A DNA stretch of 64,000 bases from an uncultured Candidatus Saccharibacteria bacterium (lineage in GTDB: Bacteria; Patescibacteriota; Minisyncoccia; Phycocordibacterales; JACOZG01), in assembly GCA_964648765.1 (NCBI GenBank), contig CAZYLF010000002.1:3537-67536 (forward strand), given 5' to 3'. Shown piece by piece: positions 18,636-36,286 of the stretch. The stretch's first letter is position 1. Each line of letters starts with the position of its first letter. The notes beneath the pieces are model-generated. The model worked only from the letters and a program-made list of their open reading frames with translations, was not told the DNA's origin and made no database searches. Made by a program: the position numbers and the translations under genes.

Positions 18636-18640
18636 TAGCT

Positions 18641-18676
18641 AAAATAAAAAGCCCCCACTTTTAGGACAGTGGGGGC
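18641..18676 (-). terminator. rho-independent terminator (minus strand) after the FAD monooxygenase gene
   Basis: gcccccactgtcctaaaagtgggggc hairpin plus T-run on the minus strand. Confidence 0.7.
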
Positions 18677-18698
18677 AAAATGACTTTGTGGGTCATTT

Positions 18699-20231
18699 TT
18701 ACCTAATTCGACGCGTTTTTTTGTACTCTGCAGCTCTCATGATCACTCCAAAAACCAAATCACCCAAAGAGTGGAGCATGCCGGGAATAACAATGGCGTT
18801 GGGATTTTCAGGAGTCTCAACTACACACCCAAATCCAAAGTAACCACGACTCAACCGTTCAGGTTTACGAGGATCAAATTCGTTTGACGCAAATTCGCCA
18901 TCGTAATCAAACAAGGCACATGCCTTTTTTGTGTCGTACGAACAACCCATCATCTCCATGGTTTCTTTGGAATGTTGGTAACCAATCAAGGTCATGATTC
19001 GATCGTACGGGAGCTGATCGAGAAATTTACCCTTTGGACCGAAAATTTGGATCACACCGCCATCAACTTCCCAGTGCTTCACATTGGAGATAATTTTACC
19101 TCCATATAATGCTCGGAAATAGTCATGACGGTATTCTGGCAAATCACCTTGATAATCAACCAAGTTCGGCCGAGATAAATCTCTGAATACCCGATAAACC
19201 CTTTCTCCACTCTCGACATAAGAATTTGGATTGAAAGTCGCCGCCTCGGGGTAATGAGTAAGGATTCGATAATCAACCTCATATCCATTGTCGATAAGTT
19301 TGTGAATCTGGTGGATCATTTCAGCGGTCGAGTTACCAAGACCGATAAGAATGAATCGCTTCCCCTTTGCCTCAGCTGGCCGGAGGAAATACTGCCACCG
19401 TGCACCCGCTTCACTCACCTTTGCAGTAGTAGTCATCCGTAAAGGATCGGAGATCGGTTTGGGTTTACCCATTCCAATCGCATTTATCACAATCGGATAT
19501 GTTGCCGTTTTACCACCCGCAAAACTCAGTAAATGCTTTAGCTTACCCGGCTTAATTCCAGTAACATTCTCAGTCACTGTTTTAAGGGTAGCCAAGTTAT
19601 CCAGAAAAATCCGCACCTCATCCCCATCTCCAGGTGCAGGCTCAAGGACATCCCCGAAAAACTGTAACCGTCGGGGATTATTGCGTGACAATCCATGGAC
19701 ATTATCTTGTGCCCAGATTCCTAATGGCCTACTCTTCTCATAAACCGTGATCTTTTCAAAGCCAACTCTTTGAAGTGCGGCTGAAACAAGGATCCCGGCT
19801 GCCCCATAACCAATTACGGCGACAGGAACACTTCTGAGTGATTGGGGTATACGGACATCGGTAAAGTAAACGCCTGACGCCCCCTCACCAATAAAATTGT
19901 TACCCTCAGCAATCCCGCTACTCGCAAGGGCTTTGCCAATACGACCATTTTCTTCATGTGATCCGTTATACGGAGAAGTCTCGGCGGGTTGTATGTGGGG
20001 GAGAGCCAAAGCATAGTTGTCGATTAACCCGGTATCAGCGTTTGGTTGACGCAATACCAGATTCAACAGTGCGTTGCCAAAAAATCCCTGCTCAGCCAAT
20101 TTGTTAATAGCTGACAAATCAAAACCCTTGTCTTCAATAAACCTCCGAAGTAAACCCAAATCAAGCTGATCTGGCCTTCTAGCACCGAACATCTTTAATA
20201 GTTCAGCTGCTGTAGCTTTGGGGGTAGACAT
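18699..20231 (-). CDS. FAD-dependent monooxygenase (flavin-containing/N-hydroxylating monooxygenase-like) with ~130-aa N-terminal extension
   Basis: Two Rossmann dinucleotide motifs, VAVIGYGAAGILVSAAL and FILIGLGNSTAEM. Confidence 0.7.
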   Translation of the reverse strand: MSTPKATAAELLKMFGARRPDQLDLGLLRRFIEDKGFDLSAINKLAEQGFFGNALLNLVLRQPNADTGLIDNYALALPHIQPAETSPYNGSHEENGRIGKALASSGIAEGNNFIGEGASGVYFTDVRIPQSLRSVPVAVIGYGAAGILVSAALQRVGFEKITVYEKSRPLGIWAQDNVHGLSRNNPRRLQFFGDVLEPAPGDGDEVRIFLDNLATLKTVTENVTGIKPGKLKHLLSFAGGKTATYPIVINAIGMGKPKPISDPLRMTTTAKVSEAGARWQYFLRPAEAKGKRFILIGLGNSTAEMIHQIHKLIDNGYEVDYRILTHYPEAATFNPNSYVESGERVYRVFRDLSRPNLVDYQGDLPEYRHDYFRALYGGKIISNVKHWEVDGGVIQIFGPKGKFLDQLPYDRIMTLIGYQHSKETMEMMGCSYDTKKACALFDYDGEFASNEFDPRKPERLSRGYFGFGCVVETPENPNAIVIPGMLHSLGDLVFGVIMRAAEYKKTRRIR

Positions 20232-20629: not shown

Positions 20630-20728
20630 AGATAGCTGGTGGCTACAGCATCGCTTAAACTGTAAACAAAGTTCTTTAAGAAAAAACAATCCCGCGTTTG
20701 GAGTAATCCAAACGCGGGATTTTATTTT
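20630..20728. repeat. direct repeat copy 2 (includes a remnant of the 13572-14834 gene 3' end + identical terminator)
   Basis: …ctggtggctacagcatcgcttaaactgtaaacaaagttctttaagaaaaaacaatcccgcgtttggagtaatccaaacgcgggattttatttt. Confidence 0.8.
20688..20728. terminator. bidirectional terminator (identical copy of 14862-14902)
   Basis: Identical 34-nt palindrome plus T-run. Confidence 0.75.
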
Positions 20729-21111: not shown

Positions 21112-21693
21112 GGACAGGTTCTTGGCTTACAGATGGTATACTCAACTGAGTTATGCCACGAAAAGAAACAAGAACCTATGCTGATCGAGCAGCCTATATG
21201 GTAAGGGCCGTTTCTTTAAGAAGAATTAAGTTAAGGAAAATGGCTCGAGAATACAAAGGTGGTAAATGTGAAATTTGCGGTTACTCTAGATGTGAGCGAG
21301 CGCTAAGTTTCCATCATCGAGATCCTAAAAAGAAATCCTTCGGGATATCAGACAGAGGTCTAACGTATTCTTGGCAGAGGATAAAAAACGAAATTGATAA
21401 GTGTGTCCTCCTCTGCGCTAATTGTCATATGGAATTGCACGACGGTTTTACGCAGCTTCCCGCTGTAAAGCGGGTTGAAAAATGAGGTGAATTCGGTGAA
21501 GTCCCATGTGGATAATACCGAGCCGAGCCCGCCAACATCCGAAAGGTTGTGGCGGGAAGGTGTAGAGACTATCTCGCAAGAGAGTACTTCTCGCTAAATA
21601 AAATTAACGAGACGGAAGCGCCTCACATCCCACTCACTGAAAAGTGAAGGATGATGATCTAGTCCATCCCTTTAAGCAATTAGAGGATAAATG
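21112..21693 (+). other. group I self-splicing intron (putative) carrying an HNH homing endonuclease ORF
   Basis: It lies between the tRNA halves. The 3'-terminal G, the R/S-like elements (ggtgtagagactatc … gatgatctagtcc) and an internal HNH ORF support the call. The exact P1 and boundaries are unverified. Confidence 0.55.
21153..21485 (+). CDS. HNH homing endonuclease (intron-encoded)
   Basis: CEICG…HHRDPKKK…CANCH zinc-finger/HNH motif; 110 aa. Confidence 0.7.
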   Translation: MPRKETRTYADRAAYMVRAVSLRRIKLRKMAREYKGGKCEICGYSRCERALSFHHRDPKKKSFGISDRGLTYSWQRIKNEIDKCVLLCANCHMELHDGFTQLPAVKRVEK

Positions 21694-21719: not shown

Positions 21720-23390
21720 CTACCGCCGGAGCCTGACTGACAAAAGTGGCACATGATGCCACTTTTGTTGTATTTGGCCTGGCTTTTTAGAGGTTCGAGC
21801 GTGCTCTATTTCCTGCATAATAGCTTCTCGTGCTTTTATGAGGCTCAAAAAGAAAGAACTGTAGGAAAGCTGGATCTTTTTGTCGGAAATGGTGAGGTTC
21901 GAGCCAAGGCATGCGAGTATCGCTCTTTTGGTCTTTTCATCTCCATTTGCGTACCAAAGATGGGCGTAGCACGCAAAGTCAAAGGTTTGCTCTGATAGTT
22001 CTGCCCATTGTTCAACTGCCTTATTCTTAATCTTCAACTCGTCTTCAAGAAGGCCCTTCTTTCTGAGTAGGTCTGATTTTAAGGACTGATATTCCTGTTC
22101 GCCAATGATGGTTCGAGCCTTGTTGGATGGTGCGGTGAAGTTTAAGGTTAAAGACTGCAGCTGCTGCGTTACTTCTTCACACTCCTTGTGTTTGGTCCTT
22201 ATTGCAATTGAATCACTCTCGGCCTCAGTCTTGCGGACCTCATGAACATGGCGGACCGCCCAGTCACGATACTCTTCTGAAATTCTTATATCTTTAAGGA
22301 TCGCTCCAATCTGTAGATGTAGCAGTTTTACTTCTACATGCTTTTCAGTACAACCGGCATCATATCTCTTTTTGGTGCAGTTATAGTAGACATAATGATG
22401 GACGTTGCCGTTCTTGCATCGCTTTACTTTTGCTTGAGCTGTAATACTACAACCACAGGTGGCGCATTTCATAAGACCAGTAAAAGCAAACATTCGCTCC
22501 TCATGTCGTGGGCGTGGTTGATTGCTTCGGCCCATAATTTTTTGGACCCTATCAAATTCCTCTTTGGTAACCATTGGCTCATGCGCTCCTTTATTCCAAT
22601 TACCACTGTGTAGCGGAAACTCAAACCAACCGTAATAAAATGGATTCCCTAGGACTGCATAAATTGCTGATCGAGAAAGATGTTCGCCGCCAATGTTTCT
22701 ACGTGGGACCGTCCGGAGATTCAATTGCTTTCTTGAAATATTCCAAATCTGGGCCATTGAATAGTTGCCGGTAAGAGCAAGGTCAAAAAGTCTTCGGACC
22801 AAGGGAAACCTTTCAGGATCTCTTTCCAAAGTCTTATAACCCTTTTGCTTGTTTGGAGTATTGAGGTATCCGATTGGTGCGCCACTTGGCATCCAGCCAT
22901 CTCTCACTTTCTTTTGCAGACCTCGCTTCACATTCACTGATAGGTCTCGAATAAACTGGTTGGCCATTCCAAGTTCCACCTGCATCATGAGGACGTTGTC
23001 TGTCGGATAATAGGTTCGGCCGAAGGTGACGATCTGGGATATCGCACTCTGCTGCAACATCCAGCTTATCTGGCCACCATCGACAGGATTACGGGCTAGG
23101 CGGTCCAGTTTCCAGCACAGGATGCCATTGGCTTCGCCTTTATAGATTCTTTCAAGCATTGAGTTGAATACTTTCCTGCCTGGCTTCTTGGCTGATTGTG
23201 ATTCTTCAAGGATATCCAGGATTTGTAGACCTTGATCCTTTGCAATCTTCATAAGCTCGTCTTTCTGAGCATCTATGGACGCCGCTTGACGGTCTTCTGC
23301 CTCGCTGGATTTACGTGCGTAGAGGAAATATTTAATTGGTTGATTTGTCTGGTTCATTGTTTGTTTGTGTGTCAGATATGTGGGTCTCAT
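21720..23390 (-). CDS. large serine recombinase (resolvase/invertase N-domain + recombinase domain + zinc ribbon)
   Basis: N-terminal YARKSSEAEDRQ…SIDAQ catalytic Ser region, central recombinase domain and C-terminal CATCGC…C cluster. The stop overlaps the tRNA 3' exon by ~12 nt. Confidence 0.85.
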   Translation of the reverse strand: MRPTYLTHKQTMNQTNQPIKYFLYARKSSEAEDRQAASIDAQKDELMKIAKDQGLQILDILEESQSAKKPGRKVFNSMLERIYKGEANGILCWKLDRLARNPVDGGQISWMLQQSAISQIVTFGRTYYPTDNVLMMQVELGMANQFIRDLSVNVKRGLQKKVRDGWMPSGAPIGYLNTPNKQKGYKTLERDPERFPLVRRLFDLALTGNYSMAQIWNISRKQLNLRTVPRRNIGGEHLSRSAIYAVLGNPFYYGWFEFPLHSGNWNKGAHEPMVTKEEFDRVQKIMGRSNQPRPRHEERMFAFTGLMKCATCGCSITAQAKVKRCKNGNVHHYVYYNCTKKRYDAGCTEKHVEVKLLHLQIGAILKDIRISEEYRDWAVRHVHEVRKTEAESDSIAIRTKHKECEEVTQQLQSLTLNFTAPSNKARTIIGEQEYQSLKSDLLRKKGLLEDELKIKNKAVEQWAELSEQTFDFACYAHLWYANGDEKTKRAILACLGSNLTISDKKIQLSYSSFFLSLIKAREAIMQEIEHARTSKKPGQIQQKWHHVPLLSVRLRR

Positions 23391-24231
23391 TTACTGGCTC
23401 TGCCCATTTTTCGCCGTTTTTAAAGGGTGGTTCCGTAGTATCTGATTGGATACTACTGACTTCCCGTAAATTTCCCGTTATATCGGGAAAATTATCTCCG
23501 TTTTCTGTGGGTCTCACTACCTCACTTAAGGGTATGTTTCCTTCATAGGCTGTCTGGACGACATCATGCCCAGAAGGGTCTTGAATAGCAACTTCTAGTG
23601 GTAGCTGCCACTTATGCATTTTTCTTTTAAGAACATCTCCAATGCTAGTTAAAGAATTCGGGGATTTATTATTTTGGTTAGTTAGAGTATCTACGTTAAT
23701 ACTACGGTTCCTGCGTTTTCGGATACTACGGAGATGTATATCTGGATACTGCGCAACTGAATCTTTAAGTTTGAGACGCCCTTTAACATGGGCAATGCTT
23801 TTCCAAAAATCGACCGACTTAAAGTAGTACAGGTTCAGAGTTTTGAATCCACTCTTTGTCTGAACCACACCAAGGATGCTGCACTCAACAAGAAGCCGGA
23901 CCGCATTGGCAACATAGTTTCTATTCTTCTCCCCAGTTAAGTCTTGAATCGTGGTTAAGCTTGGCCAGGCGACTTGTGTCTGTGTATTTCCATGTTTCAA
24001 GATTGCGCAGTAAACAAGCGTGCAGAGCTTTGGCAACTTTTCCATATAGCCATGCTCTACAAATTCATTCTCCACGAAAAATCGAGTAGGCTTTCTCTTA
24101 CCGCGCAATAAGGACCGGTCAATCTGATTCTTCAGTTCCTCGATCTTCGCCTTGTGGTAGGCATGAGCTATCTCCACTTTCTTTTTCTTCGGGTCCAACC
24201 ACTCGAGGAAATACTTCTCGTTGTTGTTCAT
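23332..24231 (-). CDS. putative replication initiator / winged-helix DNA-binding protein
   Basis: wHTH-like segment LCTLVYCAILKHGNTQTQVAWPSLTTIQDLTGEKNRNYVANAVRLL; located next to the iteron-like array. The start may be the internal Met (24045). Confidence 0.45.
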   Translation of the reverse strand: MNNNEKYFLEWLDPKKKKVEIAHAYHKAKIEELKNQIDRSLLRGKRKPTRFFVENEFVEHGYMEKLPKLCTLVYCAILKHGNTQTQVAWPSLTTIQDLTGEKNRNYVANAVRLLVECSILGVVQTKSGFKTLNLYYFKSVDFWKSIAHVKGRLKLKDSVAQYPDIHLRSIRKRRNRSINVDTLTNQNNKSPNSLTSIGDVLKRKMHKWQLPLEVAIQDPSGHDVVQTAYEGNIPLSEVVRPTENGDNFPDITGNLREVSSIQSDTTEPPFKNGEKWAEPVNETHISDTQTNNEPDKSTN

Positions 24232-24388
24232 ATTCTGTAAGCCACACCTTTTTCACAGGCCGATAGACAAGATCAAAGACCGTCAGGAGTTTGGTAGCTT
24301 CTTCAACAAGAATTTCATCTGATGGAACCTCGCCATGTTCCTGGCGATAGATCTCTCGATATTCATCTAGTGCTTGTTTACTTAGCAT
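24119..24388 (-). CDS. small protein homologous to the 33511..33735 ORF (function unknown); C-terminal part overlaps next gene
   Basis: N-terminal 45 aa (DEYREIYRQEHGEVPSDEILVEEATKLLTVFDLVYRPVKK) align with ESFQVLYKTHFNKDISRAEAVEKGTKLLTLMKAVYKPMTKE. Confidence 0.45.
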   Translation of the reverse strand: MLSKQALDEYREIYRQEHGEVPSDEILVEEATKLLTVFDLVYRPVKKVWLTEYEQQREVFPRVVGPEEKESGDSSCLPQGEDRGTEESD

Positions 24389-24499
24389 GATGGTGTAGTG
24401 TTTGGTTAATAATTTCGACCTTTAGTCTCTTCCAGAAATAGAAAGAGCTGAGTCCCAGTTGCAAGTGACTCAGCTCTTTCCATGCAACTGGATGTTATG

Positions 24500-24860
24500 T
24501 ATCGTAGATCCTATTTCGTGCAAAATTGCGTGCATTACTTTGGGACCATCCGATTTGTCTATTCTGAGGCCCTATATTTTCCTAATTGCAGGAATTACTT
24601 CGGACCAAAGAACTATCTAATCCTAGTGCTTAAAAAAAGCAAAACATGGTGTATTACTTTTTATGGCTAGGATTATGGATTTATCCTAAGGTGTATAAAG
24701 TTCCTAACTGTAGGAATTACTCTTACCCCCCGAGGACTGTCTTAATCCTATTGTCTAAAAAGTGAAAAATGCGTTGCATTACTTTCATCTCCTCGGACAG
24801 TCATATCCTAAGAGCAAATGTAGTGCATTTCGGTGTGCATTACTTTTCCTTTAGGACCAG
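24500..24860. repeat. iteron-like array: 6 degenerate tandem repeats of ~61 bp each containing ATCCTA and TGC(G)TGCATTACTTT motifs
   Basis: kGCATTACTTy occurs at 24531, 24591, 24651, 24714, 24776 and 24836. ATCCTA occurs at ~24507, 24619, 24682, 24744 and 24805. The array lies in the intergenic region upstream of the rep-like/recombinase genes. Confidence 0.7.
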
Positions 24861-24975
24861 GTAAGTATGAGGTCCGAAGAAGTGCAAATTAGTGGGTATT
24901 GGCCGAGACAACGTAAAAAGCCCTGAATAGGCTTGGAAAAGCGTACACAGGGCTGTTTAGGGTCAAATTCGGTGT

Positions 24976-27900
24976 CTACAATATGTTCTCTCGCAATAAA
25001 TAAGCTATTACCGAAGCCTTTTCCAAGAGGAAATCCAAAATGATGAGAATCTGATTTTTTAACTGCGGATTAGTCTTGATCTTTTGCCGATTTTTAAGAA
25101 TGTAACTCCTCACAAGATTCTCCAGATAATAAACAGTGTTTACTTCTAGTTCCTTACGAGAAAGATCTGGATTCTTCTGTAGCAAATCACTAATCCAAGC
25201 AATACCCTCAGGAACAAAATTACTACCTATATCATTCAGAAGTTTTGTCAAAGCATACAAGACAGGGGTATTACCTCCCATATCTTCAGATACTTTCTTA
25301 AAGAAAGTCTTTTCTCTGTCTTTCAGAGAGCGCCATTCTTTCGCCCCTTTCTTCCATTGCAATGCTAGGAGGTATTTATGAACAACACTTTCAGCGTATC
25401 TAAGGTGATTTTCATCTGAGCATAGTTCCACAATCTTCGGATAGAAAACCTTCCAAACAGTCCAAAATTCTTCGTATTGATTTATAGAATCTTCCGCAAT
25501 AACAAACGCTTCTAGTACATCAGCCACAGCTTTCCTTCGCCTGAAATCACCAATGAGTTCCGTAAATGGCTTCACATACGTTTCAATTTCTTCTTTTGGA
25601 GAATAGAGGACAAAGTAAGCAAACTTATCTAAAAATCTATGTTCAAGCATATAGTCCAGACGCTCTTCCTTGTCCTCATTCTTAAATGCTTCTATGAGCA
25701 CAGGGCAAATTTCTCGTAAAAACTTCTTATGATTCTCGTCACTAGTTTTTAGCGGTACCAGCAGAAAAGCAGTTACGAGTATGCCGGGATCTATCTCTGC
25801 AACATTCTGTAGATCTGTATAAGAGAGTTGATTTGATAAGGCTTTATTGATCTGGGCTTTGCACTCTTTTTTAAAACGCTTTATGACAGAGATTGTAGAG
25901 AAGTCATATTTTTGTTTCTTTCGACTCTCTTCTCGAATAGACTCGCTTATTTCATCAAACTTAGGTTTAAGAAATAAGTACCCATGGAATATAGCTTTTG
26001 CATCCTCGGGACTTTCTGACCACAGATGTTGCAGAACTGCCGCGACCGCATAATCAGAGACTCGTTGGCTCATACCAATCGGATAGGAGTCGAAAAGAAC
26101 GAGAAGAAGTATCACTTTGATTTTTTCAGCATCCTTGGGAAACTTTTTGATCAATAGAGGAAGGACGTTAACTGATGCTTCTAATCCGTCGCCAACCTGA
26201 TATCGAAAACCTGCCTTCAAAGGCATAGATGCATAATCGAGTACTACTTTTTTACAAAACTCTGTATCCTTAGGAGACAGTTTGTCTGAGTAGTCTCGCA
26301 AAAGTACGGCACAGACATATGATGGAACTGACCGGTAGAATAATCTGAATTGACTCTCTTCGAGTTTATCTTTATCTAGCTGTTCCAGGATTGCTTTCGT
26401 TTCAGAAAGCGCGAGCACAGGATCATTTTCATATTGTGGGTAATTTTTTACTTCTTCCTTTCTTTCAAACTTATGACTCGACCATAATTGCAAAGGTGTA
26501 TATTTCAATGCTTCGGAACTTTTTGCCTGCGCTTCTTCACTGTGTTGTCTTAACTCTGGATCAATCTCAGGGTTGAAACTAATAAGAACTTGATCGTCTT
26601 TTTTCTCTGTAGTTATCTTCATTTTTCGACGATCCATTCTTGCCAAACAAAGTCTCCAGGTTTTATCACCATCAGTCTCTTTTGATTTGTTAGGTAGTTT
26701 TGCATAGTATTCATCAAGTATTTTCCATACCTCTTCCTGTCTAGTTTTAGACACTTCTTCCGCTTCGCCCTCATTCGCAAATAACTGATAGTTAAGTGCC
26801 TGATTTTCAAGTGAGTGATTACGATGCTTATCTTCACAAGTCTGCAGCCTCTCGTTCTTGAATAAGCCCATTGGATCATGGGCCATCGAGTAAGTGAACT
26901 TCGCACTACTCATATCGAGGTACATTCTTGAAGAATCAAAGAAAAAGAAATCCTTAGTTCTGAAAAGAATTTTTGCAATATTGAATAGCTTCGACGGTTC
27001 GGCAAGAACAGCGCTGACTACTACTGCAGTAATCGAGACGGATCGAGAATTTTTGATGAGATAAAGGCACCACTTCTCTACAACTTCAGGATCCCAGGTT
27101 TTTGCTATACCGAGCAACCAATGCTCCAGAGCCATATGAATAGATTCAAGTAATGGTGGAGCAACCTGCGTTCCCCGATATAAATTCCAAATTCTGTGAC
27201 AGGCATATTGTTTGATAGTTTGACCCGAAGCATCTACTACGACATCTATTTCTTCAGCTTCGTACTGCGCGAATTCTGATTTGGCAAAATACCCGATCGA
27301 CTTATTAGTAAATGCTAAAATAAAGTTGACCGTTTCCTGAGGGGCGACTTGCAACATCGTTCCTATTGGTGTCTGAAAAGCACTAGCTGGGTAATACTCA
27401 AGATGGCCCTCCGTGAGATCAAAGTATTGCTCTATGCCATTCCTGTAATCAGAATATGAATGCCTATCTTCACGAGGTTTATAAAACCAAAATAGATTTG
27501 CAAGTTTTATGATTTCTTTCGGAAGATGACGTGCAACTTCGGTGCTATTGATAATTGAAGAAAGCATCACTTTTACCAATTCGTAATATCGAGTTCGATG
27601 GGATGTATCCTGCGCGGCAATGACTCCATCTACAATTTCAGTCAACTCTTCTTTTATTTCCCCTGAGCCACTAAGAATAGTTCTGATGAGTTGCTCTTTG
27701 GAGCTATCACGAGAACTGAAGTAAAAATCATTCTTGGCTGTAAGGGTGTTGTAATAAAACAATGCAATCTGACTTGCTTCCTTAGTAGTTTCTCCTTGCT
27801 TATTACTTCGGTTCCAATCATCCAGTACTGGGAGGATGACATGCATATACATAAGTTGAAGCCTGTCCTTATGTTTGTTGACGAAAGCAATGGCAGAAGA

Positions 27901-29814
27901 CCACCCACTACCTTTAGGAGTCGTAAATATAGTTTCTAGTGTAAGTGCATTTGCTCGAGTTAAACCCAGACGATTCAAGAAATTGTCATCTACAGTCTTG
28001 CAGGCAATTCTCAGCAAGAAGAGAATTCTGTGTAGCAGTCTTTGTTCGATCTTGTAATTAACATTAACCACCCTAATCACTTTGGAAGAGCTTTCGACAG
28101 AAACGACTCGTTCAGGTTCCTTAAGTAATTCTTCTTCAAAAAGATCAAAGAATACTTTTGAATAATCTGAGAGGAGTACTGAGACTAAAACCTCATCTTT
28201 CCAATAATTCTCAACGGAACCATCTTGCACCGTAAATGCAATCAACTTCTTTGCTTTTTCATCACTTGCAAAAAGTTTGTCGGATAGCCAATTTCTAAAG
28301 GCACGTCGAATTGGAAGCGAACTACCTATTTCAGTGTAAAAATTATCGAAGCTGGTAGCAGTGCTAAAGGCCCTCTCGATAATCATATCTAAAGCCCACT
28401 CTTCATATACATCGTGTGTTATGAAGTATCCGCCAGCGTTTGAATCAAATTTGATAATCTCGCTCGCTTCTAGTTTCTGAAGCGCTTCATGATCAGATTC
28501 TCCAGTCCTAACGAAGAATCCTCCCTCATTTGCACGTTGCTTAGCGATCTTCAAAAAAGACTCTTCTCTTCGTCTGTGTAAATTATTTGATTGAAAACCT
28601 GAATTCTGGATCTGCTTCTTCCAAATAATTTCGCGAAAATCAGTATAGCTAATATCTGCCTTCGTCTCAGTATAATCCTGTAAATACTCACTCAGATAAA
28701 GTGGCGTTGAAAGAAGGCTTGCAAGTCTGTCATTTTTAGGAAGCTTGAATTTATGTGTCCTTGCGATTAATTCAATTTCTTCACTGGAAAGATGTGGAAT
28801 ATTCAGGGATGCAAAATTCGCTCCGTAGAATTCTTTTAGTTGGAAACGGAGATCATCAAGATAGTTATGTCGCACTGTAAAAATAACTTTCCAACCATTT
28901 GTGACTAACTCAGACAGAAACATTCTGAACACATCTTGGTCTTCGATTTCTGAAAGTCTTTCAGCCGAGTCAAAGACTACATACTTCTCATTGATATCTT
29001 TATGCTCAGCAATAAATTCTGCTGCAGTGATTTCTCCATAATCCTTGAAAAGTTGGTTTATATGGGAAGCACTTTTAAATTGTGTAACCTTAAAGACGAA
29101 AAAGGGTGTGGAATCCTTTACTGTTTCGTAAAGATCTTTTATTACCGCAGTTTTACCTACCCCTGCACCACCACTTAAAACCACAAGCGGAAAAGTTTGA
29201 GCGGTATCTTTAACACCACCCACAACAGAAGAACGGTCTAGTTTGATTGCACTTTTCCCAAAAGAGATCTCTGAACGGATAGGCTGAAGTACTGAATCAG
29301 TATATTTCTGGAGTTCAATAATGGAGTCGATGATGCCCTTCTTAAGACTAAAGAAATGTTGCGCGATACTAAAGTTCTCTTCGCAAACAAATGGCGATTC
29401 AAAGTAGCTTCCTGTCCGCCATTCGATCTCGACACCTTTTGACTTAGCGTGAGCTTCTATGTCCTTTTTGTATTGAGGATCTGTTTTCTTTTTGTCCTGT
29501 CCAAATTCTTGATTCGTATAGAAAATAATTTTATTTAGCTTCGGATGTCTCTCTTTGCCTTTATCGATGGATTCTTTAAAGTCGGCAGTATGTTGAGAGA
29601 GCGCTGTCGTATAAAATTTCGACTGCCAACCTACAACTAAGCCATTCTGTTCAACAGGATTGGTTTCGATACCAGCATGATTCTTGAACCTAAAAACACC
29701 AATATTTTTATTAAACTCCTTGCAAAATAAAAGATAACAAAGTCGTTCAAAAGCCCCTTGCTTATTACTACTAAATTTCGCACCGAAGTTGTCCCAATTC
29801 ACTTCCTGAATCAT
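24976..29814 (-). CDS. 1612-aa STAND-type P-loop NTPase (Avs-like architecture): putative N-terminal PD-(D/E)xK-like nuclease, central NTPase, long C-terminal helical repeat region
   Basis: Walker A VVLSGGAGVGKTAV, Walker B KYVVFDSAE, sensor VIFTVRHNY (hhhTxR) and then ~1250 aa of helical repeats. The first ~130 aa (…GIETNP…VVGWQSKF…) are a possible E…QxK nuclease-like core, which is speculative. Confidence 0.75.
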   Translation of the reverse strand: MIQEVNWDNFGAKFSSNKQGAFERLCYLLFCKEFNKNIGVFRFKNHAGIETNPVEQNGLVVGWQSKFYTTALSQHTADFKESIDKGKERHPKLNKIIFYTNQEFGQDKKKTDPQYKKDIEAHAKSKGVEIEWRTGSYFESPFVCEENFSIAQHFFSLKKGIIDSIIELQKYTDSVLQPIRSEISFGKSAIKLDRSSVVGGVKDTAQTFPLVVLSGGAGVGKTAVIKDLYETVKDSTPFFVFKVTQFKSASHINQLFKDYGEITAAEFIAEHKDINEKYVVFDSAERLSEIEDQDVFRMFLSELVTNGWKVIFTVRHNYLDDLRFQLKEFYGANFASLNIPHLSSEEIELIARTHKFKLPKNDRLASLLSTPLYLSEYLQDYTETKADISYTDFREIIWKKQIQNSGFQSNNLHRRREESFLKIAKQRANEGGFFVRTGESDHEALQKLEASEIIKFDSNAGGYFITHDVYEEWALDMIIERAFSTATSFDNFYTEIGSSLPIRRAFRNWLSDKLFASDEKAKKLIAFTVQDGSVENYWKDEVLVSVLLSDYSKVFFDLFEEELLKEPERVVSVESSSKVIRVVNVNYKIEQRLLHRILFLLRIACKTVDDNFLNRLGLTRANALTLETIFTTPKGSGWSSAIAFVNKHKDRLQLMYMHVILPVLDDWNRSNKQGETTKEASQIALFYYNTLTAKNDFYFSSRDSSKEQLIRTILSGSGEIKEELTEIVDGVIAAQDTSHRTRYYELVKVMLSSIINSTEVARHLPKEIIKLANLFWFYKPREDRHSYSDYRNGIEQYFDLTEGHLEYYPASAFQTPIGTMLQVAPQETVNFILAFTNKSIGYFAKSEFAQYEAEEIDVVVDASGQTIKQYACHRIWNLYRGTQVAPPLLESIHMALEHWLLGIAKTWDPEVVEKWCLYLIKNSRSVSITAVVVSAVLAEPSKLFNIAKILFRTKDFFFFDSSRMYLDMSSAKFTYSMAHDPMGLFKNERLQTCEDKHRNHSLENQALNYQLFANEGEAEEVSKTRQEEVWKILDEYYAKLPNKSKETDGDKTWRLCLARMDRRKMKITTEKKDDQVLISFNPEIDPELRQHSEEAQAKSSEALKYTPLQLWSSHKFERKEEVKNYPQYENDPVLALSETKAILEQLDKDKLEESQFRLFYRSVPSYVCAVLLRDYSDKLSPKDTEFCKKVVLDYASMPLKAGFRYQVGDGLEASVNVLPLLIKKFPKDAEKIKVILLLVLFDSYPIGMSQRVSDYAVAAVLQHLWSESPEDAKAIFHGYLFLKPKFDEISESIREESRKKQKYDFSTISVIKRFKKECKAQINKALSNQLSYTDLQNVAEIDPGILVTAFLLVPLKTSDENHKKFLREICPVLIEAFKNEDKEERLDYMLEHRFLDKFAYFVLYSPKEEIETYVKPFTELIGDFRRRKAVADVLEAFVIAEDSINQYEEFWTVWKVFYPKIVELCSDENHLRYAESVVHKYLLALQWKKGAKEWRSLKDREKTFFKKVSEDMGGNTPVLYALTKLLNDIGSNFVPEGIAWISDLLQKNPDLSRKELEVNTVYYLENLVRSYILKNRQKIKTNPQLKNQILIILDFLLEKASVIAYLLRENIL

Positions 29815-29819
29815 CGTAT

Positions 29820-30983
29820 TTACCGATTTCCTTTTGCTCGATTGTGTGTCTTACACAACATTTCGCAATTTTTAATATCGGTCTTTCCACCCTTACTCCA
29901 GGCCGAGACATGGTCGGCATCCATATCTGCTAGACTCCAAATCTTATCTTTGTTCGCATCGTGACCGATCGCACAATGTGAACAGTTAGAAGTACCTTTC
30001 TTCTTTGCGGCAGCAGTTTGAGCTTCATAGACTGAACGTTTGGTTGAGTCCTCAAATACTCGAACTTCAAGTAGTTTTGTTTCGACCTCTCCTCCTAAAA
30101 CATACTCAAAAATACCTTTGCGATTTTTTACAAAACCGTCGGCATAGAGTTTCTGAACCGTAGCAGATACTTTAGCGGGATTATATTTTTTCTTATGATA
30201 CGTTTGGTAGAGTCTATTCCACTCAAGGCCTTTCATCTCGCTTTCAACTTCAGTAAATGTAGTTGAAATCCAATCAATAACAATTTCGAAATGCTTTTTT
30301 AGCTCGGTAATGTTTTTGTCGTTGCGATGCTTGCTCATGTAACTATCGATATCACCACCAGAAACCCAATCTAAGGCTCGTTCCAAATATGCCTGGCGTT
30401 TAATATCACCTGCAATGTACGCACTCCATTTCTGGACGTTAGCGTTCTGACTGTTACTAAATTCTTCACGCGCAAGTGTGACAAATGGTCCAGAATATAC
30501 CGCATTAAGAATCTCTTGTTCGGTTAAAGGAACTCCCGCAATATTGATAGTCTTAAACCAGTCTTTGATCTCCGGCTCATCACCCTCACATACATATACC
30601 AACAACTTAGTATTCATGATTTGCTCTCGTTGGCTCTCAGCCATGCCGCTGTAGTACTGTTCATGGCCATTCCTATCTTTGACAGCAAACTTTCCTGTCA
30701 CAAAGCGGCCAATACTTGTGATACGCTGCTGACCATCTAACACCTCAAACTTATCTTTGCCAGCTTGATTAAAATAAATTAAACCTATTGGGTAACCTTT
30801 CAAAATTGAGTCAATCACAGCAACGTCACGCTTACCATCAGCATAAATATAATTACGTTGATACTCTGGTTGAATAGTTAATTTTCCAGATAGACCAAAC
30901 AACCCCTTTCCTTCGAGTTCGTTGTAGACGAAGCCGTCGCAAACTTCTCTAATTGTAATGTCATTTTTTAAGGTTGTTTTCAT
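29820..30983 (-). CDS. DUF262 (ParB-like nuclease/NTPase) – HNH endonuclease fusion (GmrSD/SspE-like architecture)
   Basis: [19 protein letters not shown] motif; C-terminal CSHCAIGH…[12 protein letters not shown]…[17 protein letters not shown] motif. Confidence 0.8.
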
Positions 30984-30985
30984 AA

Positions 30986-32107
30986 TTATTTTTTCTTATG
31001 TTTGATAAATAACTTTTTAAATGTTTCTTTGCCATTTATATAGGTACTACGTCCGTAAACACCTTCAGGATCCTGACCAATTCCTCGGTTTGCACCAAGT
31101 ATCTCAAACTGCTCAGAAGAATATTTGTCCATAAAACTTATCGGCACGCCAATAACACCACCATAGTCGCTTGGGATCGCATCTACATACGAAACATCAA
31201 TGGCATCGTAATTATCATATTTATCATATGATGTTTTACCCTGCATTTTTTTGTTGAACTTTAAGTTATCTTCCATACTCATTAAGCTGAGTGGTTGATG
31301 TCTTCGCCCATGATCCAAATTAGTGTACCAACGCACACCCTGGACTCTCGTGATATAAACTTTTTTACCTTGTTCATTTACCTTTATTTCACGTACCTGG
31401 TCTAGATTAGCTATCGCCTCAGGTATTTCGTAAAACATAGCTCCACCGTTCACTTTTGCATTATTGCCAAACCATACTTTGTTTGCCTTAATCATAGGAA
31501 AAACTTCTTTGTATGTAATCGCGTTCATATTTCCAATGATCAAAAATTGCTTTTCGTAATCAAAAAGTTGCGTAATGTATTCACGAAATAAACTAAATGG
31601 AGGATTGGTGACTACAATGTCAGACTGTTTGAGTAACTCAACACATTCATCACTTCTAAAATCACCATCGCCCTCAAGCGGAGACCACTCGTTATTTTTG
31701 TTAGCTCTAAGTTGCTTAGCAATATCTTCTAGTGTAAAAGAACCATCGCCATCAACATCACCAACCTCGTTAATAATAAATTTGTTAGCAACAACTTTTG
31801 GTCGCCCTTTGACTGGTTTGAGGGTAACGTCATCGCCGAATAGTGTTATTTGAGTGTTCGCAACTGGAGAGGGTTTGTAACTAGTTGTAATAAGTCTTTT
31901 TAGTCCTAAACGATTAAAATTCAAGACGAAGTAACGAAAAAAGTTACTTTCAAACGGGTCATCACAGTTACTGTAAATTACCTTACCTTTAAAAGTATTC
32001 GGGTTATATTCAAGATATGATTCCACCTCTTTTTGAATATCAGAAAATTGAGTATAAAACTCATCATTTTTTGCTTTTTTTGCGTCTCTTAGATTCTTGT
32101 TTGCCAT
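30986..32107 (-). CDS. N6-adenine DNA methyltransferase (gamma-class; DEFYT motif X, NPPF motif IV)
   Basis: NDEFYTQF and [11 protein letters not shown] motifs. The start is set at MANKN (32107), which avoids overlap with the Fic gene; the ORF track extends to 32206. Confidence 0.75.
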
Positions 32108-32111
32108 AAAT

Positions 32112-33014
32112 TTATTTCTGTTTGCCAGGGCTATAAACAAACCCTTCTGCAATCTTCCAAACACCTTTCTCTCGGAAAGCTGGGATGTTTTGACGACGAG
32201 CGGCATTAGTTAGCGCAGATGCTGATGCGTGGCTTGTCTTTGCATAATCAGAAAGAGTAACGATCTTCTCGCCCTTAAGATAAGTAATTCTTTTGTGGAG
32301 TGATTCGGTAAGAGAAAGCGCGAGGATCTTTTCCATCTTCTTTGCAGTCTTCTTGTCTCGATATTCAGCAAAGGTGCTGTAATAATCCTTTTTTTCTTTG
32401 TCTCGAATGATAATTCCAGGGAAACCAAGTCTCTGGAGTTGGTAATTTATAAGTACACGACCAATACGACCATTGCCATCACAGAATGGGTGAATAGTTT
32501 CAAATTCAAGGTGGAATTTTGCAATCCTGTCTACAAAAAATGACTTAACATCAGCAACATACTCTGACAAAAGTGCATCAATCATTTTTTCTACTTGTTC
32601 AGGGGCCGGAGCAACGTGTGTACCAACTCTCACATATTCACCGATCTTTCTGAAACGACCGGCAATATCATCTTTAATCCCGCCAATAAGCATTTGGTGG
32701 AGGAATAAAATAACTTCTCTGTTTACTTCAGTTTCTTGAGATTTATTTCTAATGTAAGCAACAACTCGAGCAAGATTCTTAGCCTCGAACACTTCTCGGA
32801 CCGAAACTTCACGAGCTACTTCCATTTCCAAAAGAATCTTTTCCGTCTCCTGGAGAGTAAGGGTTGAGTTTTCGATGGCGTTTGAGTTATAAACCGCCTC
32901 GGCAACCTCCGCCTCATCTACCATAACCAAAAGTGACTCTTTTCCTTTTTTAAGAGCTTCGTATTCGGTCTTGAGGTTTTGGATTCTATTTACGAGGGGT
33001 TTTGTAATTGCCAT
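32112..33014 (-). CDS. Fic/Doc family protein (AMPylase-type Fic motif)
   Basis: Canonical Fic motif HPFCDGNGRIGR. Confidence 0.85.
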   Translation of the reverse strand: MAITKPLVNRIQNLKTEYEALKKGKESLLVMVDEAEVAEAVYNSNAIENSTLTLQETEKILLEMEVAREVSVREVFEAKNLARVVAYIRNKSQETEVNREVILFLHQMLIGGIKDDIAGRFRKIGEYVRVGTHVAPAPEQVEKMIDALLSEYVADVKSFFVDRIAKFHLEFETIHPFCDGNGRIGRVLINYQLQRLGFPGIIIRDKEKKDYYSTFAEYRDKKTAKKMEKILALSLTESLHKRITYLKGEKIVTLSDYAKTSHASASALTNAARRQNIPAFREKGVWKIAEGFVYSPGKQK

Positions 33015-33039
33015 ATGTTTTAGTTAATTAACCTTTAAT

Positions 33040-33068
33040 ATTATAGGGTTTTCACTACTTCTTGTCAA
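33040..33068 (-). promoter_or_regulatory. promoter (minus strand) TTGACA-N17-TATAAT driving the Fic-MTase-HNH-STAND operon
   Basis: Reverse complement reads TTGACAagaagtagtgaaaacccTATAAT. Confidence 0.6.
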
Positions 33069-33197
33069 TTTTTAGTGAATGATAGGCTATTTTAGCACCT
33101 TATTCACTAGTTTTTGCTATATAACCCAGTAATCTAAGGTACTTATAAGGTGTGGTAAGGCCTTTACTTTTTTGACTTCTAGGAATAATGTTGCGAC

Positions 33198-33506
33198 ATG
33201 AGTCAATTATTAATATCAGTTGTAGGAGGTCTTCTTGTTATAATCATCGCTGCTATATTCGGCCTTGGTGGGAACACAAAGGTAACTGTCCATGGTGGTG
33301 GAAGGGTTAAGAAGACAGGAAAATGGATAATCATTATCTCGGTAGTGATGTTTTTCATAGGACTTTCCCTATGCAAAAAGAGTGATCCAACTCAGTGGGG
33401 CTTTGATCTAAATATTTCCTCTACTCTCTACGGCGTTACAATCATGCTCTACAGTGGATTATTTTTTGTTGTCGGTAAAATTGTAGCCTGGTTTCAAAGA
33501 CCATAA
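33198..33506 (+). CDS. small membrane protein, 102 aa
   Basis: Three TM helices. Confidence 0.45.
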   Translation: MSQLLISVVGGLLVIIIAAIFGLGGNTKVTVHGGGRVKKTGKWIIIISVVMFFIGLSLCKKSDPTQWGFDLNISSTLYGVTIMLYSGLFFVVGKIVAWFQRP

Positions 33507-33510
33507 ACTT

Positions 33511-33735
33511 ATGCAGCTCGCAGACAAAGACATCGAGAGTTTTCAGGTGCTGTATAAAACGCATTTCAATAAAGATATTTCGCGTGCAGAGGCAGTAGAA
33601 AAAGGCACCAAGCTCTTAACATTGATGAAAGCTGTTTATAAACCCATGACCAAGGAACAGTTCGATGCTATCCAGAAACGGAGAAAAGATACATTACCAG
33701 CTTTGATTAAAAGACTGGAACAAGATCAACTCTGA
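33511..33735 (+). CDS. small protein homologous to the 24119..24388 ORF
   Basis: See the alignment above; 74 aa. Confidence 0.5.
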   Translation: MQLADKDIESFQVLYKTHFNKDISRAEAVEKGTKLLTLMKAVYKPMTKEQFDAIQKRRKDTLPALIKRLEQDQL

Positions 33736-34115
33736 AACTCTACCTCGAACGGATACATTCCCATTCCGCAAGTTCCTTGGAGTGTGCCGAGTTTGCCTTC
33801 ACCAATATCAATATCAGTTGAACCTGTTTGTGGAAGCGATTTGCTTATACCCATACTTGGAATTCGAACTGATGATGAACAGTCAAAGGTTCCTTTAGTG
33901 TTGAATCTGATGATTGTTGGAATACCGGCTTTTGCAATACTCTTTCGGGGTTGATATCCACCCCTCGCAGTTATTTCGATAATCTGCTTTCCGTCTACAA
34001 CGCTAACGTTGTTTGCATTTGCCACCTGTCCAGTGTCACCACCACTTCTGGTGAGCATAAAAGCTCCACCGATGAGGACTACTGCTACAATAATTGAGAT
34101 AATAGTTGCTTTCAT
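33726..34115 (-). CDS. membrane-anchored periplasmic beta-sandwich (cupredoxin/CopC-like?) protein
   Basis: N-terminal TM anchor then a beta-rich domain with a GTCGMGMYPFEVEF Met/Cys-rich end. The start is set at the internal Met, which follows TATAAT-N8 (leaderless-like). Confidence 0.45.
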   Translation of the reverse strand: MKATIISIIVAVVLIGGAFMLTRSGGDTGQVANANNVSVVDGKQIIEITARGGYQPRKSIAKAGIPTIIRFNTKGTFDCSSSVRIPSMGISKSLPQTGSTDIDIGEGKLGTLQGTCGMGMYPFEVEFQS

Positions 34116-34128
34116 AATTGGAATTATA

Positions 34129-35160
34129 CTAGAAGTTAAAGACTGGCGGAATAACCCCAATCACGACCAAACTATTAATAAGATTGAAGAGAGCGAACAT
34201 GATCACGATCAGTCCTGCCGTCTTGAAGAAGATACCTGCCTTTGAACTCTTTTGAATACTGAACGAGCTGAAGCTGATGAGAGCCAGGACCGGCAACGTA
34301 CCGAGTGCGAATGCGAGCATGGTAAGTCCTCCGGTGAGAAAACTTCCTGTGGTAAGGGTATAAAGCTGCATCGATTGAGTGAATCCGCATGGCAGGAAGA
34401 AGGTTGCAATACCAACGAGAAGCGGCGTGAGAGTGTGATTGAACTTCGATACACCATGAGCATGCTTGGCGATAAACTTCGGCATTGATGGCTGAAGTTT
34501 CTTGGCCCAGTGAAATGTGTCGAGGAGATTGATACCAAGGATAAGCATGACGATACCAATTATCAAACTCAATACAAATGTTGCAGAAGTGTTGAGTGTG
34601 AACGCCGATCCAATAGCACCTATAACTCCACCCAGGACAAAGAATGAGGCGATTCGTCCGGCATGGAACATGAGCTGAGGTCGAACCTTGTCACCCTCTT
34701 TGGCGAAAGTGGCGGACATCGATAGGACCAGACCACCGACAACTGCCATACAAGTTGAAAGCGATGCGATAATACCGATCACAAATGCGGTCCCGTAAGT
34801 TACGTTGCCTGCACTGACAAGATTTACAATTCCCATTTTCTGCAGCACTACGAAGAGCACCGCGAAGCCTAGTGCGATCGGGACGGCAATCTTGAAGTCT
34901 CCCCATTTGGCATTGTGCTGCTGTTTTTCAACCGAGACAGTATAGCCATGAGGTTTGAGCGGTATGGTGAGTTCCTCTGCAATCTGCTCCGGTGTCTTAC
35001 CACCAAAGTCTCCGGTGACTTCCATTGAATGGTGCTTTAGACTTAATTTAACATGGGTGACATTTGGCAAATCTCCAATCTCGCTTTCGGTCATAAGTAC
35101 ACATGCGTTGCAGTGCATTCCATGTACGTGAAAGGTGTATTTTTGTGTTTGTGTAGTCAT
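34129..35160 (-). CDS. heavy-metal-associated (HMA) domain fused to a multi-TM membrane domain (DsbD/CcdA- or TauE-like)
   Basis: N-terminal HVHGMHCNACV HMA motif followed by ~8 TM helices. Confidence 0.65.
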   Translation of the reverse strand: MTTQTQKYTFHVHGMHCNACVLMTESEIGDLPNVTHVKLSLKHHSMEVTGDFGGKTPEQIAEELTIPLKPHGYTVSVEKQQHNAKWGDFKIAVPIALGFAVLFVVLQKMGIVNLVSAGNVTYGTAFVIGIIASLSTCMAVVGGLVLSMSATFAKEGDKVRPQLMFHAGRIASFFVLGGVIGAIGSAFTLNTSATFVLSLIIGIVMLILGINLLDTFHWAKKLQPSMPKFIAKHAHGVSKFNHTLTPLLVGIATFFLPCGFTQSMQLYTLTTGSFLTGGLTMLAFALGTLPVLALISFSSFSIQKSSKAGIFFKTAGLIVIMFALFNLINSLVVIGVIPPVFNF

Positions 35161-35174
35161 TGGTAATTTCAGTC

Positions 35175-35390
35175 TTATCTCTGCTCTCTTTCAAGTTGTC
35201 GACGATAGAGAGCGCATACACCGGCTGAGATCGAGATGAGCGTGAGAACGATGGCATCATTGATGCAGTGCTGATACGTAAAGCCCCAGATAGTTCCGCC
35301 TTCGCCTGCAAGCCATGCGCCGATAAGCGCTAGTGCTCCCCAGATTGCCGTTGCGATTGATACTCCATGGATAAATGATGATTTTTTCAT
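35175..35390 (-). CDS. small membrane protein, 71 aa
   Basis: Two TM helices. Confidence 0.4.
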   Translation of the reverse strand: MKKSSFIHGVSIATAIWGALALIGAWLAGEGGTIWGFTYQHCINDAIVLTLISISAGVCALYRRQLEREQR

Positions 35391-35420
35391 AAGATTTATG
35401 TTAATTATTTTTAAATAAGT

Positions 35421-36062: not shown

Positions 36063-36085
36063 ATTTTTGTAGTTAGATTAATAAG

Positions 36086-36286
36086 TTACTCTCCGGCGTA
36101 CTTCACAGGATCGGCTGTGAAATGATTCTTGCAGTGGATAGCGCAAAAGTAATAGGTTTTACCTTTGTAGTCTGCGCTTGCCTTAATACTGTCTGCATCA
36201 AGTTCCATTCCGCAGACCAAGTCGAAAGCAACTGCCGGATCAAGATTTTTATACTTTTTATTGCCTTTAAGCTTTTTTGTTTGCAT
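36086..36286 (-). CDS. YHS/TRASH-domain small metal-binding protein
   Basis: VCGMELD…YYFCAIHC motif. Confidence 0.65.
   Translation of the reverse strand: MQTKKLKGNKKYKNLDPAVAFDLVCGMELDADSIKASADYKGKTYYFCAIHCKNHFTADPVKYAGE

Follow-up and report, generated by a model that had tools for sequence, protein, structure and literature searches.

An intact avs4 gene in a recombinase-flanked defence island of a Patescibacteria genome

Gene content of the locus

The window (the whole stretch of DNA analysed, 64,000 nucleotides long) carries on its minus strand a very large ORF that starts with an ATG and runs without interruption from 29814 to 24976 (Table 1). An ORF of 1612 aa had already been proposed here in a sequence-only reading, which gave no strand; the ORF proved to be intact, and all of the motifs named in that reading were found at their places when their positions were re-read in the translation. 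The choice of start codon is supported by the N-terminus, MIQEVNWDNF, which agrees with the consensus of the family to which we assign the protein (Avs4), as well as by the alignments with EcAvs4 and with the NCBIfam model, which begin at residues 5–6.

The gene, hereafter avs4, closes a compact run of four defence genes, preceded by those for a Fic-domain protein, an EcoRI-type methylase and a GmrSD_N-HNH endonuclease; the stop codon of the latter lies 5 nt ahead of the avs4 ATG. A perfect match to the sigma-70-type promoter consensus, the sole such match in 24300–33800, precedes the start codon of the Fic gene by 25 nt and is likely to drive a transcript of all four genes. Judging by gene spacing and consensus scans, avs4 is probably co-transcribed with the Fic gene and the type II restriction-modification pair. 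The GC content of this island is 0.38–0.40, compared to 0.42–0.46 in its flanks, and a mobility module with a large serine recombinase adjoins it. The avs4 gene is carried as cargo on this recombinase-flanked island of low GC, in a genome of the Patescibacteria (Paceibacterota). A search for direct or inverted att-site repeats bounding the island returned only short, possibly chance matches, and the neighbouring proteins at 16039–20231 had no PDB or Pfam match. Tandem Repeats Finder found nothing in the intergenic segment 24200–25000; a degenerate periodicity of ~61 nt is visible there by alignment.

Table 1. Features of the avs4 locus, in window coordinates
Feature	Position	Strand	Basis or remark
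Putative sigma-70-type promoter (TTGACA, 17 nt spacer, TATAAT)	33040..33068	-	12/12 consensus match
Fic-domain protein, 300 aa, heading the cluster	32112..33014	-	Pfam Fic 2.3e-20; PADLOC PDC-S04 6.3e-37, SoFic 3e-26
EcoRI-type N6-adenine DNA methyltransferase, 373 aa (start ATG at 32107)	30986..32107	-	Pfam EcoRI_methylase 1e-120; PADLOC MTase_II
GmrSD_N (DUF262) + HNH endonuclease, 387 aa	29820..30983	-	Pfam GmrSD_N 9.9e-23, HNH 1.3e-06; PADLOC REase_II 1.9e-85, full length
avs4 ORF, 1612 aa	24976..29814 (with stop codon)	-	predicted single-gene Avs4 defence system
N-terminal effector domain, residues 1 to ~170	29305..29814	-	homology to the PD-(D/E)xK nuclease domain (Mrr-like) of EcAvs4
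E50 (in GIETNP), acidic, putative metal ligand of the nuclease	29665..29667	-	conservation; alignment with EcAvs4 E49; putative catalytic role
Q64-S65-K66, QxK variant of the (D/E)xK motif	29617..29625	-	conservation; alignment with EcAvs4 Q63-S-K65
STAND NTPase / oligomerisation module, residues ~196-500	28315..29229	-	sub-threshold Pfam NACHT and nSTAND3; ~41% identity to EcAvs4
Walker A / P-loop GGAGVGKT, residues 215-222	29149..29172	-	motif position and conservation
Walker B VVFDSAE, residues 279-285	28960..28980	-	motif position and conservation
T313-V-R315, sensor-1-type TxR motif of STAND NTPases	28870..28878	-	conservation; FTTRNNY at the aligned place in EcAvs4
C-terminal sensor of alpha-helical repeats with three inserted beta-hairpins, residues 501-1612; putative portal-binding domain	24979..28314	-	AF2 and Foldseek
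Hairpin and subsequent T-run resembling a terminator, 42 nt beyond the avs4 stop codon	24918..24934	-	consensus match only
HTH_36 protein	23332-24231	-	Pfam HTH_36 3.8e-08; part of mobility module 21720..24231
Large serine recombinase	21720-23390	-	Pfam Resolvase, Recombinase, Zn_ribbon_recom; NCBIfam XisF/Ccr-like matches; part of mobility module 21720..24231

Assignment to the Avs4 family

Two family models and one structure identify the protein. The NCBIfam equivalog NF041815 ('AVAST type 4 anti-phage nuclease Avs4') matched with 2051.7 bits against a cutoff of 1500, aligning ORF residues 6–1612 with model positions 1–1579 of 1579, and the PADLOC Avs4 model PDLC02169 scored 1964.3 bits over positions 3–1570 of 1570. 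In the PDB, chain A of 8DGF ('ATP-binding protein Avs4', bound to the PhiV-1 portal) was matched with E = 0 and 1354 bits in one collinear stretch (ORF residues 5–1612 against EcAvs4 4–1587). Across ORF residues 5–971 (922 aligned columns) the protein is 45.8% identical to EcAvs4, with 53% in the nuclease, 41% in the NTPase and 46% in the first part of the sensor that this range covers. Annotated avs4 genes of 35 plasmids from E. coli and Salmonella encode proteins 42.4% identical over residues 6–1612. Homologues already named 'AVAST type 4 anti-phage nuclease Avs4' at NCBI reach 79%. The sequence-only reading, which saw an Avs-like STAND NTPase whose N-terminus may hold a nuclease, is thus upheld and can be sharpened to Avs4.

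Domains and conserved motifs

Conservation was counted in a MAFFT alignment of the ORF with 115 full-length homologues that are 50–94% identical to it (n=116). In the central module, G215, G220, K221 and T222 of Walker A, D282 and E285 of Walker B, and T313 and R315 of the TxR motif (FTVRHNY, residues 312–318) are each present in 116/116 sequences, which confirms the STAND core defined by these three motifs in the sequence-only reading; being near-invariant across the family, they are not chance matches. The Pfam NACHT model (PF05729) reached 22.7 bits at residues 210–353, below its gathering cutoff of 26.7, so the module is a STAND NTPase but not a NACHT member at the Pfam level.

The E...QxK core suspected in the first ~130 aa aligns residue for residue with GIETNP...IIGWQSKF of EcAvs4 and is conserved family-wide (GIETNP at residues 48–53 and VVGWQSKF at 60–67 here): E50 and Q64 occur in 116/116 sequences each, K66 in 112/116 (R in the other four), and E23 in 111/116. 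The domain is ~53% identical to EcAvs4 residues 4–212, and 8dgf_A was the best PDB match of its model in Foldseek (E 2.8e-16). The AF2 model itself is of low confidence (pLDDT 62.8); its predicted order of elements, alpha-beta-beta-alpha-beta-alpha-beta, is compatible with a PD-(D/E)xK core. Pfam nuclease families gave no match at E <= 0.1 for the whole protein, nor at E <= 10 (e.g. Mrr_cat) when the first 170 aa of five family members were searched. For these reasons the assignment leans on two things, the 53% identity shared with the nuclease domain of EcAvs4 and the literature, where that domain is called Mrr-like; together they support a putative Mrr-like nuclease. Q63 and K65 of EcAvs4 are reportedly catalytic, as judged from mutants by Gao et al. 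in Science in 2022.

The C-terminal part, earlier described as helical-repeat-like, is indeed predominantly helical: the AF2 model of residues 501–1612 (1112 aa) contains 69% helix and 5% strand, with a mean pLDDT of 84.6 and a pTM of 0.67. In a Foldseek search of the PDB this model matched 8dgf_B/A with E 1.1e-68, a query-normalised TM of 0.77 and 42% identity over 1118 columns. The remaining matches had a TM of at most ~0.27, the next ones being generic HEAT/importin solenoids with a TM of ~0.2. Alignment with, and superposition on, the Avs4 sensor extend up to the last residue of the ORF.

Apparent mobility of avs4

At the most closely related locus (L003), nucleotide homology of 91% spans window positions 24977–29805, essentially the ORF alone, and the Avs4 protein is 94% identical compared to 44–82% for adjacent chromosomal genes. 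Neighbour genes differ at every related locus. The Fic protein, methyltransferase and endonuclease of the window had no match among the flanking ORFs of five related loci (L003–L007); being absent from all five (0/5), they were rejected as conserved partners of Avs4. By this comparison of gene neighbourhoods, Avs4 here behaves as a single-gene system without conserved partner genes, and avs4 appears to move as a single-gene cassette.

Among GenBank sequences from the same host group, full-length homologues 78–79% identical to the ORF (e.g. P0007, JAIETH010000001.1 and JAZKIP010000010.1) often have a large serine recombinase nearby, as is the case here, but have other neighbour genes and do not have the Fic-methyltransferase-endonuclease set of the window. 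The record of P0007 is titled 'MAG: AVAST type 4 anti-phage nuclease Avs4 [Patescibacteria group bacterium]'.

Discussion

We conclude that the ORF is an intact and ordinary member of the well-studied Avs4 family, with every motif conserved and a sensor of the Avs4 fold, and that it shows no departure from what is known of that family. By homology to EcAvs4, it very likely encodes a working Avs4 (AVAST type 4): a pattern-recognition receptor of the STAND NTPase class that acts against phages as a single protein, by the portal-triggered nuclease mechanism.

The two proteins have the same three-domain architecture and nearly equal lengths (1612 and 1587 aa), and they have in common the sensor fold, the TxR and both Walker motifs, and E...QxK in the nuclease. 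They differ in sequence, being only 42–46% identical, and in two indels: a 19-aa insert after residue ~110 of EcAvs4 is absent from the protein described here, while one of ~23 aa at residues 566–588 of the latter is absent from EcAvs4. They also differ in host, a Patescibacteria (CPR) bacterium as opposed to an enterobacterium or its plasmids. Avs1–3 (e.g. SeAvs3, PDB 8DGC) and other Avs proteins follow a common logic of N-terminal effector, STAND NTPase and C-terminal repeat sensor, in which binding of a conserved phage protein by the sensor leads to tetramerisation, as we propose for the present protein. The target of Avs1–3 is the large terminase, and their effector is often a Cap4 nuclease or one of other kinds; none of these proteins matched the ORF in the PDB sequence search or in fold by Foldseek, where only 8DGF passed thresholds. 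Avs11 also senses the portal, yet is unrelated to Avs4 in sequence and structure (PMC13581612). With the fold of Mrr-type PD-(D/E)xK restriction nucleases (Pfam Mrr_cat), the order of elements in the low-confidence model is compatible, as is the E...QxK motif, but those enzymes act as stand-alone modification-dependent restriction systems, whereas the Avs4 domain would be an effector activated by oligomerisation.

The low identity to EcAvs4 and the indels, of which the insertion at residues 566–588 is one example, might also be read as signs of a sensor that has diverged to recognise a non-portal phage protein, or only those portals that belong to a restricted set of Patescibacteria phages, with the oligomerisation-activated nuclease being retained; a target can be common to Avs families that are unrelated, and can differ between related ones (PMC13581612). 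We regard this as unlikely, given that the model superposes on the portal-bound EcAvs4 sensor along 1118 columns and that the protein falls into the NCBIfam equivalog class far above its cutoff. Moreover, Avs1–4 bind terminase and portal folds directly and recognise conserved folds rather than sequences (PMC13581612), so broad portal recognition is to be expected in spite of such divergence. Portal specificity is nevertheless an extrapolation, as the sensor is only ~42–46% identical to that of EcAvs4 and little is known about Patescibacteria phages. It is doubtful, though conceivable, that two further things hold together: that the sensor is tuned to the portals, or to another protein, of largely unknown CPR phages; and that Fic, methyltransferase, endonuclease and Avs4 are made from a single transcript with one promoter, within a serine-recombinase element that also bears a widely shared copper-resistance module, as a co-regulated multi-layer cassette spreading among CPR bacteria.

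An avs4 copy that is decaying or inactive, a passive passenger of the mobile island, is a still less probable explanation. The low-GC DNA seems to have been acquired horizontally, and an abortive-infection nuclease might be ill tolerated by Patescibacteria with their small genomes; against this, the 1612 codons are unbroken and full length relative to the family model, all nucleotide-binding and putative catalytic residues are kept, and full-length relatives 62–94% identical occur on several Patescibacteria contigs, which points to purifying selection. The least credible reading, to which we give practically no weight, is that of a STAND NTPase in a housekeeping role, for instance a MalT/LuxR-type regulator of transcription with a C-terminal HTH, the alternative named in the sequence-only reading. 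Only generic P-loop/STAND features (the sub-threshold NACHT, AAA_16 and similar Pfam matches) fit it. Pfam shows neither signature, and no HTH, LuxR/GerE or other DNA-binding domain anywhere in the protein; the match to Avs4 models and to the Avs4 structure is end to end, and the setting is a defence island with a Fic gene, a restriction-modification pair and an adjoining serine recombinase. The full-length match to the Avs4 equivalog already refutes it.

For the preferred reading of a functional Avs4, we infer portal specificity, tetramerisation, DNA cleavage and protection from the behaviour of EcAvs4. In an uninfected cell the protein would be an inactive monomer. Upon expression of the portal by a tailed phage, the ~1100-aa alpha-helical sensor would wrap around it, and ATP bound at the Walker A/B site (K221, D282/E285 and R315) would allow the STAND module to drive assembly of a tetramer. 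Tetramer formation would pair the N-terminal Mrr-like PD-(D/E)xK domains into active sites (E50, Q64-x-K66), which may then cut double-stranded DNA indiscriminately and abort the infection at the cell's expense. This is similar to what was described for Avs4, where the phage portal acts as the activator, the effector (called 'Mrr') mediates tetramerisation with two dimers giving active sites, and immunity comes about via nucleic-acid degradation (bioRxiv 10.64898/2026.08.25.746987).

Both the Avs4 family and its Patescibacteria members are already known, homologues from Patescibacteria MAGs bearing the Avs4 name, and the finding has little consequence beyond correct annotation, as NCBI's pipeline would assign this name automatically. 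No paper dedicated to Avs/AVAST in Patescibacteria or CPR bacteria came up in a literature search. The interest is modest and rather ecological: an intact abortive-infection NLR-like sensor is retained in episymbiotic bacteria with very small genomes, and Avs4 seems to pass from one CPR lineage to another as a cassette of a single gene near serine recombinases. If portals of CPR phages could be matched to Avs4, this would provide a handle on an almost unstudied phage-host system.

Family assignment and sequence conservation

The avs4 gene is one unbroken ORF running from an ATG at 29814 to a stop at 24976. The conserved N-terminus supports this start codon, as do alignments starting at residue 5-6. 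By sequence, we identify the 1612-aa product as Avs4: the NCBIfam equivalog NF041815 ('AVAST type 4 anti-phage nuclease Avs4') is matched over model positions 1-1579 of 1579 at 2051.7 bits (cutoff 1500); the PADLOC Avs4 model matches end to end at 1964 bits; and E. coli Avs4 (EcAvs4) bound to the PhiV-1 portal (PDB 8DGF) is the sole match among all PDB sequences, aligning in one stretch (E 0, residues 5-1612 vs 4-1587). Counted over 922 columns of the alignment to 8DGF, identity to EcAvs4 is 45.8% (53% in the nuclease, 41% in the NTPase and 46% in the first half of the sensor). Searching plasmids with tblastn returned 39 records, 32 from E. coli and three from Salmonella, each <60% identical; the matches listed carry annotated avs4 genes and are 42.4% identical over residues 6-1612. 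Pfam by itself would not be sufficient to name the family, giving only sub-threshold NACHT, AAA_16 and nSTAND3 matches around residues 204-354 and none outside that region. The sequence-only reading of an Avs-like STAND NTPase was right, and these full-length matches place it in Avs4.

The intact ORF and all five motifs quoted in that reading were confirmed by ORF reading, by mapping to residues, and by conservation across the protein and 115 full-length homologues (50-94% identity, from ~5.8 billion proteins searched; see table).

Genes, sequence features and avs4 motifs in the window
Feature	Position	Strand	Evidence or remarks
Fic protein	33014-32112	-	Pfam Fic; PADLOC PDC-S04 / SoFic
EcoRI-type adenine methyltransferase	32107-30986	-	Pfam 1e-120
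GmrSD_N + HNH endonuclease	30983-29820	-	PADLOC REase_II 1.9e-85
avs4	29814-24976	-	NF041815, PADLOC Avs4, 8DGF
Proposed nuclease core, E23	avs4 residue 23		E23 111/116
Proposed nuclease core, GIETNP	avs4 residues 48-53		E50 116/116
Proposed nuclease core, VVGWQSKF	avs4 residues 60-67		Q64 116/116; K66 112/116, R in the remaining sequences
Walker A, GGAGVGKT	avs4 residues 215-222		G215, G220, K221, T222 116/116
Walker B, VVFDSAE	avs4 residues 279-285		D282, E285 116/116
FTVRHNY, containing sensor-1-type TxR	avs4 residues 312-318		T313, R315 116/116
Copper module	33732-39354		CsoR-like repressor, P-type ATPase, DUF305, HMA-DsbD_2, cupredoxin
Copper-resistance P-type ATPase	36720-39119
Degenerate repeat array	24500-24866		six units, ~61 nt each, between avs4 stop and HTH_36 gene
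Hairpin	24438-24483		17 nt
Stand-alone HNH-domain ORF	21153-21485	+	110 aa; Pfam 21.5 vs cutoff 21.4 (borderline); just outside serine recombinase gene
Inverted repeat	20681-20728		22 nt
ThiF/E1-like four-gene cluster	15321-20231	-	directly beyond recombinase module
AAA ATPase and 158-aa ORF	50364-52386		ATPase 509 aa; weak IetA/TRIP13-like PADLOC matches (3e-10); in highest-GC segment of the window (0.525)
SAM (S-box) riboswitch	40802-40906		66.6 bits, E 2.6e-13
Cob_adeno_trans (PduO-type adenosyltransferase) ORF	40984-41640		just downstream of the riboswitch
DegT/DnrJ-type aminotransferase + FAD_binding_4 + ALO (arabinonolactone-oxidase-like) fusion	3178-5682	-	834 aa
tRNA-Ala(GGC)	1449-1524

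Domain structure and proposed mechanism

Our AlphaFold2 model of the N-terminal 195 aa is of low confidence (pLDDT 62.8), so we base the nuclease assignment on the invariant motif and on homology to EcAvs4, which has an effector termed Mrr (bioRxiv 10.64898/2026.08.25.746987). The model places helices at 18-33, 76-89 and 114-125 and strands at 54-56, 59-64, 95-100 and 129-134, an order consistent with a PD-(D/E)xK core, with E23 on the first helix, E50 ahead of the hairpin and Q64-x-K66 ending the second strand. In a Foldseek search of the PDB, 8dgf_A/B were the only significant matches (E 2.8e-16 and 8.7e-14).

Residues 501-1612 are modelled well (pLDDT 84.6, pTM 0.67) as 69% helix with three beta-hairpin insertions, and superpose on the portal-bound EcAvs4 chains (E 1e-68, TM 0.77, 1118 aligned columns); the remaining PDB matches are generic HEAT/importin-like solenoids (TM ~0.27 or less). 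The helical-repeat-like C-terminus described from sequence is thereby borne out as an EcAvs4-like sensor. A MalT/LuxR-type regulator, the reading that would have spoken against Avs, is excluded because Pfam finds no C-terminal HTH in the protein.

Avs1-4 recognise large terminase and portal folds through direct binding (PMC13581612). Avs4 is activated by the phage portal; Avs3, Avs4 and Avs7 tetramerise via their Cap4 or Mrr nuclease domains, the active sites being formed by two dimers, and these effectors protect the cell by degrading nucleic acids (bioRxiv 10.64898/2026.08.25.746987). Since every needed element is intact here, homology suggests as the most likely function that the portal would trigger the protein, the NTPase would gate the response, and oligomerisation would activate the nuclease, leading to DNA degradation, i.e. 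abortive infection.

A compact defence gene cluster

avs4 closes a row of four minus-strand genes separated by successive gaps of 4, 2 and 5 nt. Upstream of the Fic gene, 25 nt from its start, is a predicted sigma-70 promoter of perfect consensus (TTGACA-17-TATAAT), the sole 12/12 match in the region scanned; at the other end, a terminator-like hairpin comes after the avs4 stop. Fic, methylase, endonuclease (29820-33068 with the promoter) and avs4 look co-transcribed as one operon of four genes that combines several defence systems. The stretch from 24 to 34 kb has a GC content of 0.38-0.40, vs 0.42-0.46 around it. The pairing of the methylase with a DUF262/GmrSD_N-HNH enzyme is an unusual restriction-modification architecture.

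Downstream of avs4, 575 nt of intergenic sequence contain periodic repeats; the genes for an HTH_36 protein and a large serine recombinase are also on this side. The repeat units share an invariant core, G-N-ATTACT-Y (24532, 24592, 24651, 24714, 24776 and 24837, all + strand), and each has a TCCTA-like submotif; this 9-mer pattern recurs just eight times in the remaining 63.6 kb, both strands counted. TRF did not detect the array. Iterons are one possibility for these units, sites bound by the HTH_36 protein or the recombinase another. The independent Logan assemblies SRR14271331 and SRR14271332 match the window at 100% identity, and both end at 24649, inside the array, which points to assembly breaks induced by the repeats or to strain variation at the recombinase-module junction.

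Host and apparent mobility

The closest named Avs4 relatives come from Patescibacteria MAGs (78-79% identity, one already labelled Avs4 by NCBI) and Candidatus Buchananbacteria (62%). The adjoining copper-resistance P-type ATPase is 87-96% identical to proteins of CPR MAGs named Candidatus Paceibacterota, Taylorbacteria, Ryanbacteria, Nomurabacteria and 'Patescibacteria group'. At the closest related locus, L003, Avs4 is 94% identical (91% nt), and nucleotide homology spans 24977-29805, essentially the ORF alone; copper genes beside it share only 44-82% protein identity with ours. The Fic, methylase and endonuclease genes occur in none of five related avs4 loci. In four Paceibacterota genomes (L008-L011), a NERD-domain gene, not the Fic-RM-Avs4 block, comes after the copper module, which is 83% nt identical to ours. 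Therefore, avs4 acts like a self-contained cassette inserted into a variable hotspot, which is what one would expect of a defence system made of a single gene. A large serine recombinase lies within a few kb of avs4 at three loci (the window, L003 and L004).

The cupredoxin end of the copper module is such a hotspot, holding the NERD gene in L008-L011 and Fic-RM-Avs4 here, and the copper cluster may itself be mobile cargo common to Patescibacteria. In L008, L009 and L011, its other side is flanked by a serine recombinase and HTH_36 pair, 41% and 33% identical to that of the window. Downstream of the module, L010 carries a diversity-generating-retroelement-like pair (bAvd + RVT_1 reverse transcriptase, 10692-12145), absent from the window.

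Elsewhere in the window, the 15321-20231 cluster encodes a 233-aa ThiF/E1-like protein, of which PADLOC E1-E2 matches cover the E1 part only, and three proteins (256, 570 and 510 aa) that match nothing in Pfam or the PDB. In the 510-aa protein there is no more than a weak Rossmann/ThiF-like motif at the N-terminus. The cluster could represent an uncharacterised operon of the ubiquitin-like-conjugation or defence type. The Cob_adeno_trans gene is an unusual downstream partner for a SAM riboswitch.

We conclude that this avs4 is an ordinary member, of the kind that automatic annotation can name, of a family whose structure and mechanism have been characterised; only two aspects are mildly notable, its CPR host and its place in an apparent compact operon of several defence systems on an island flanked by a recombinase.
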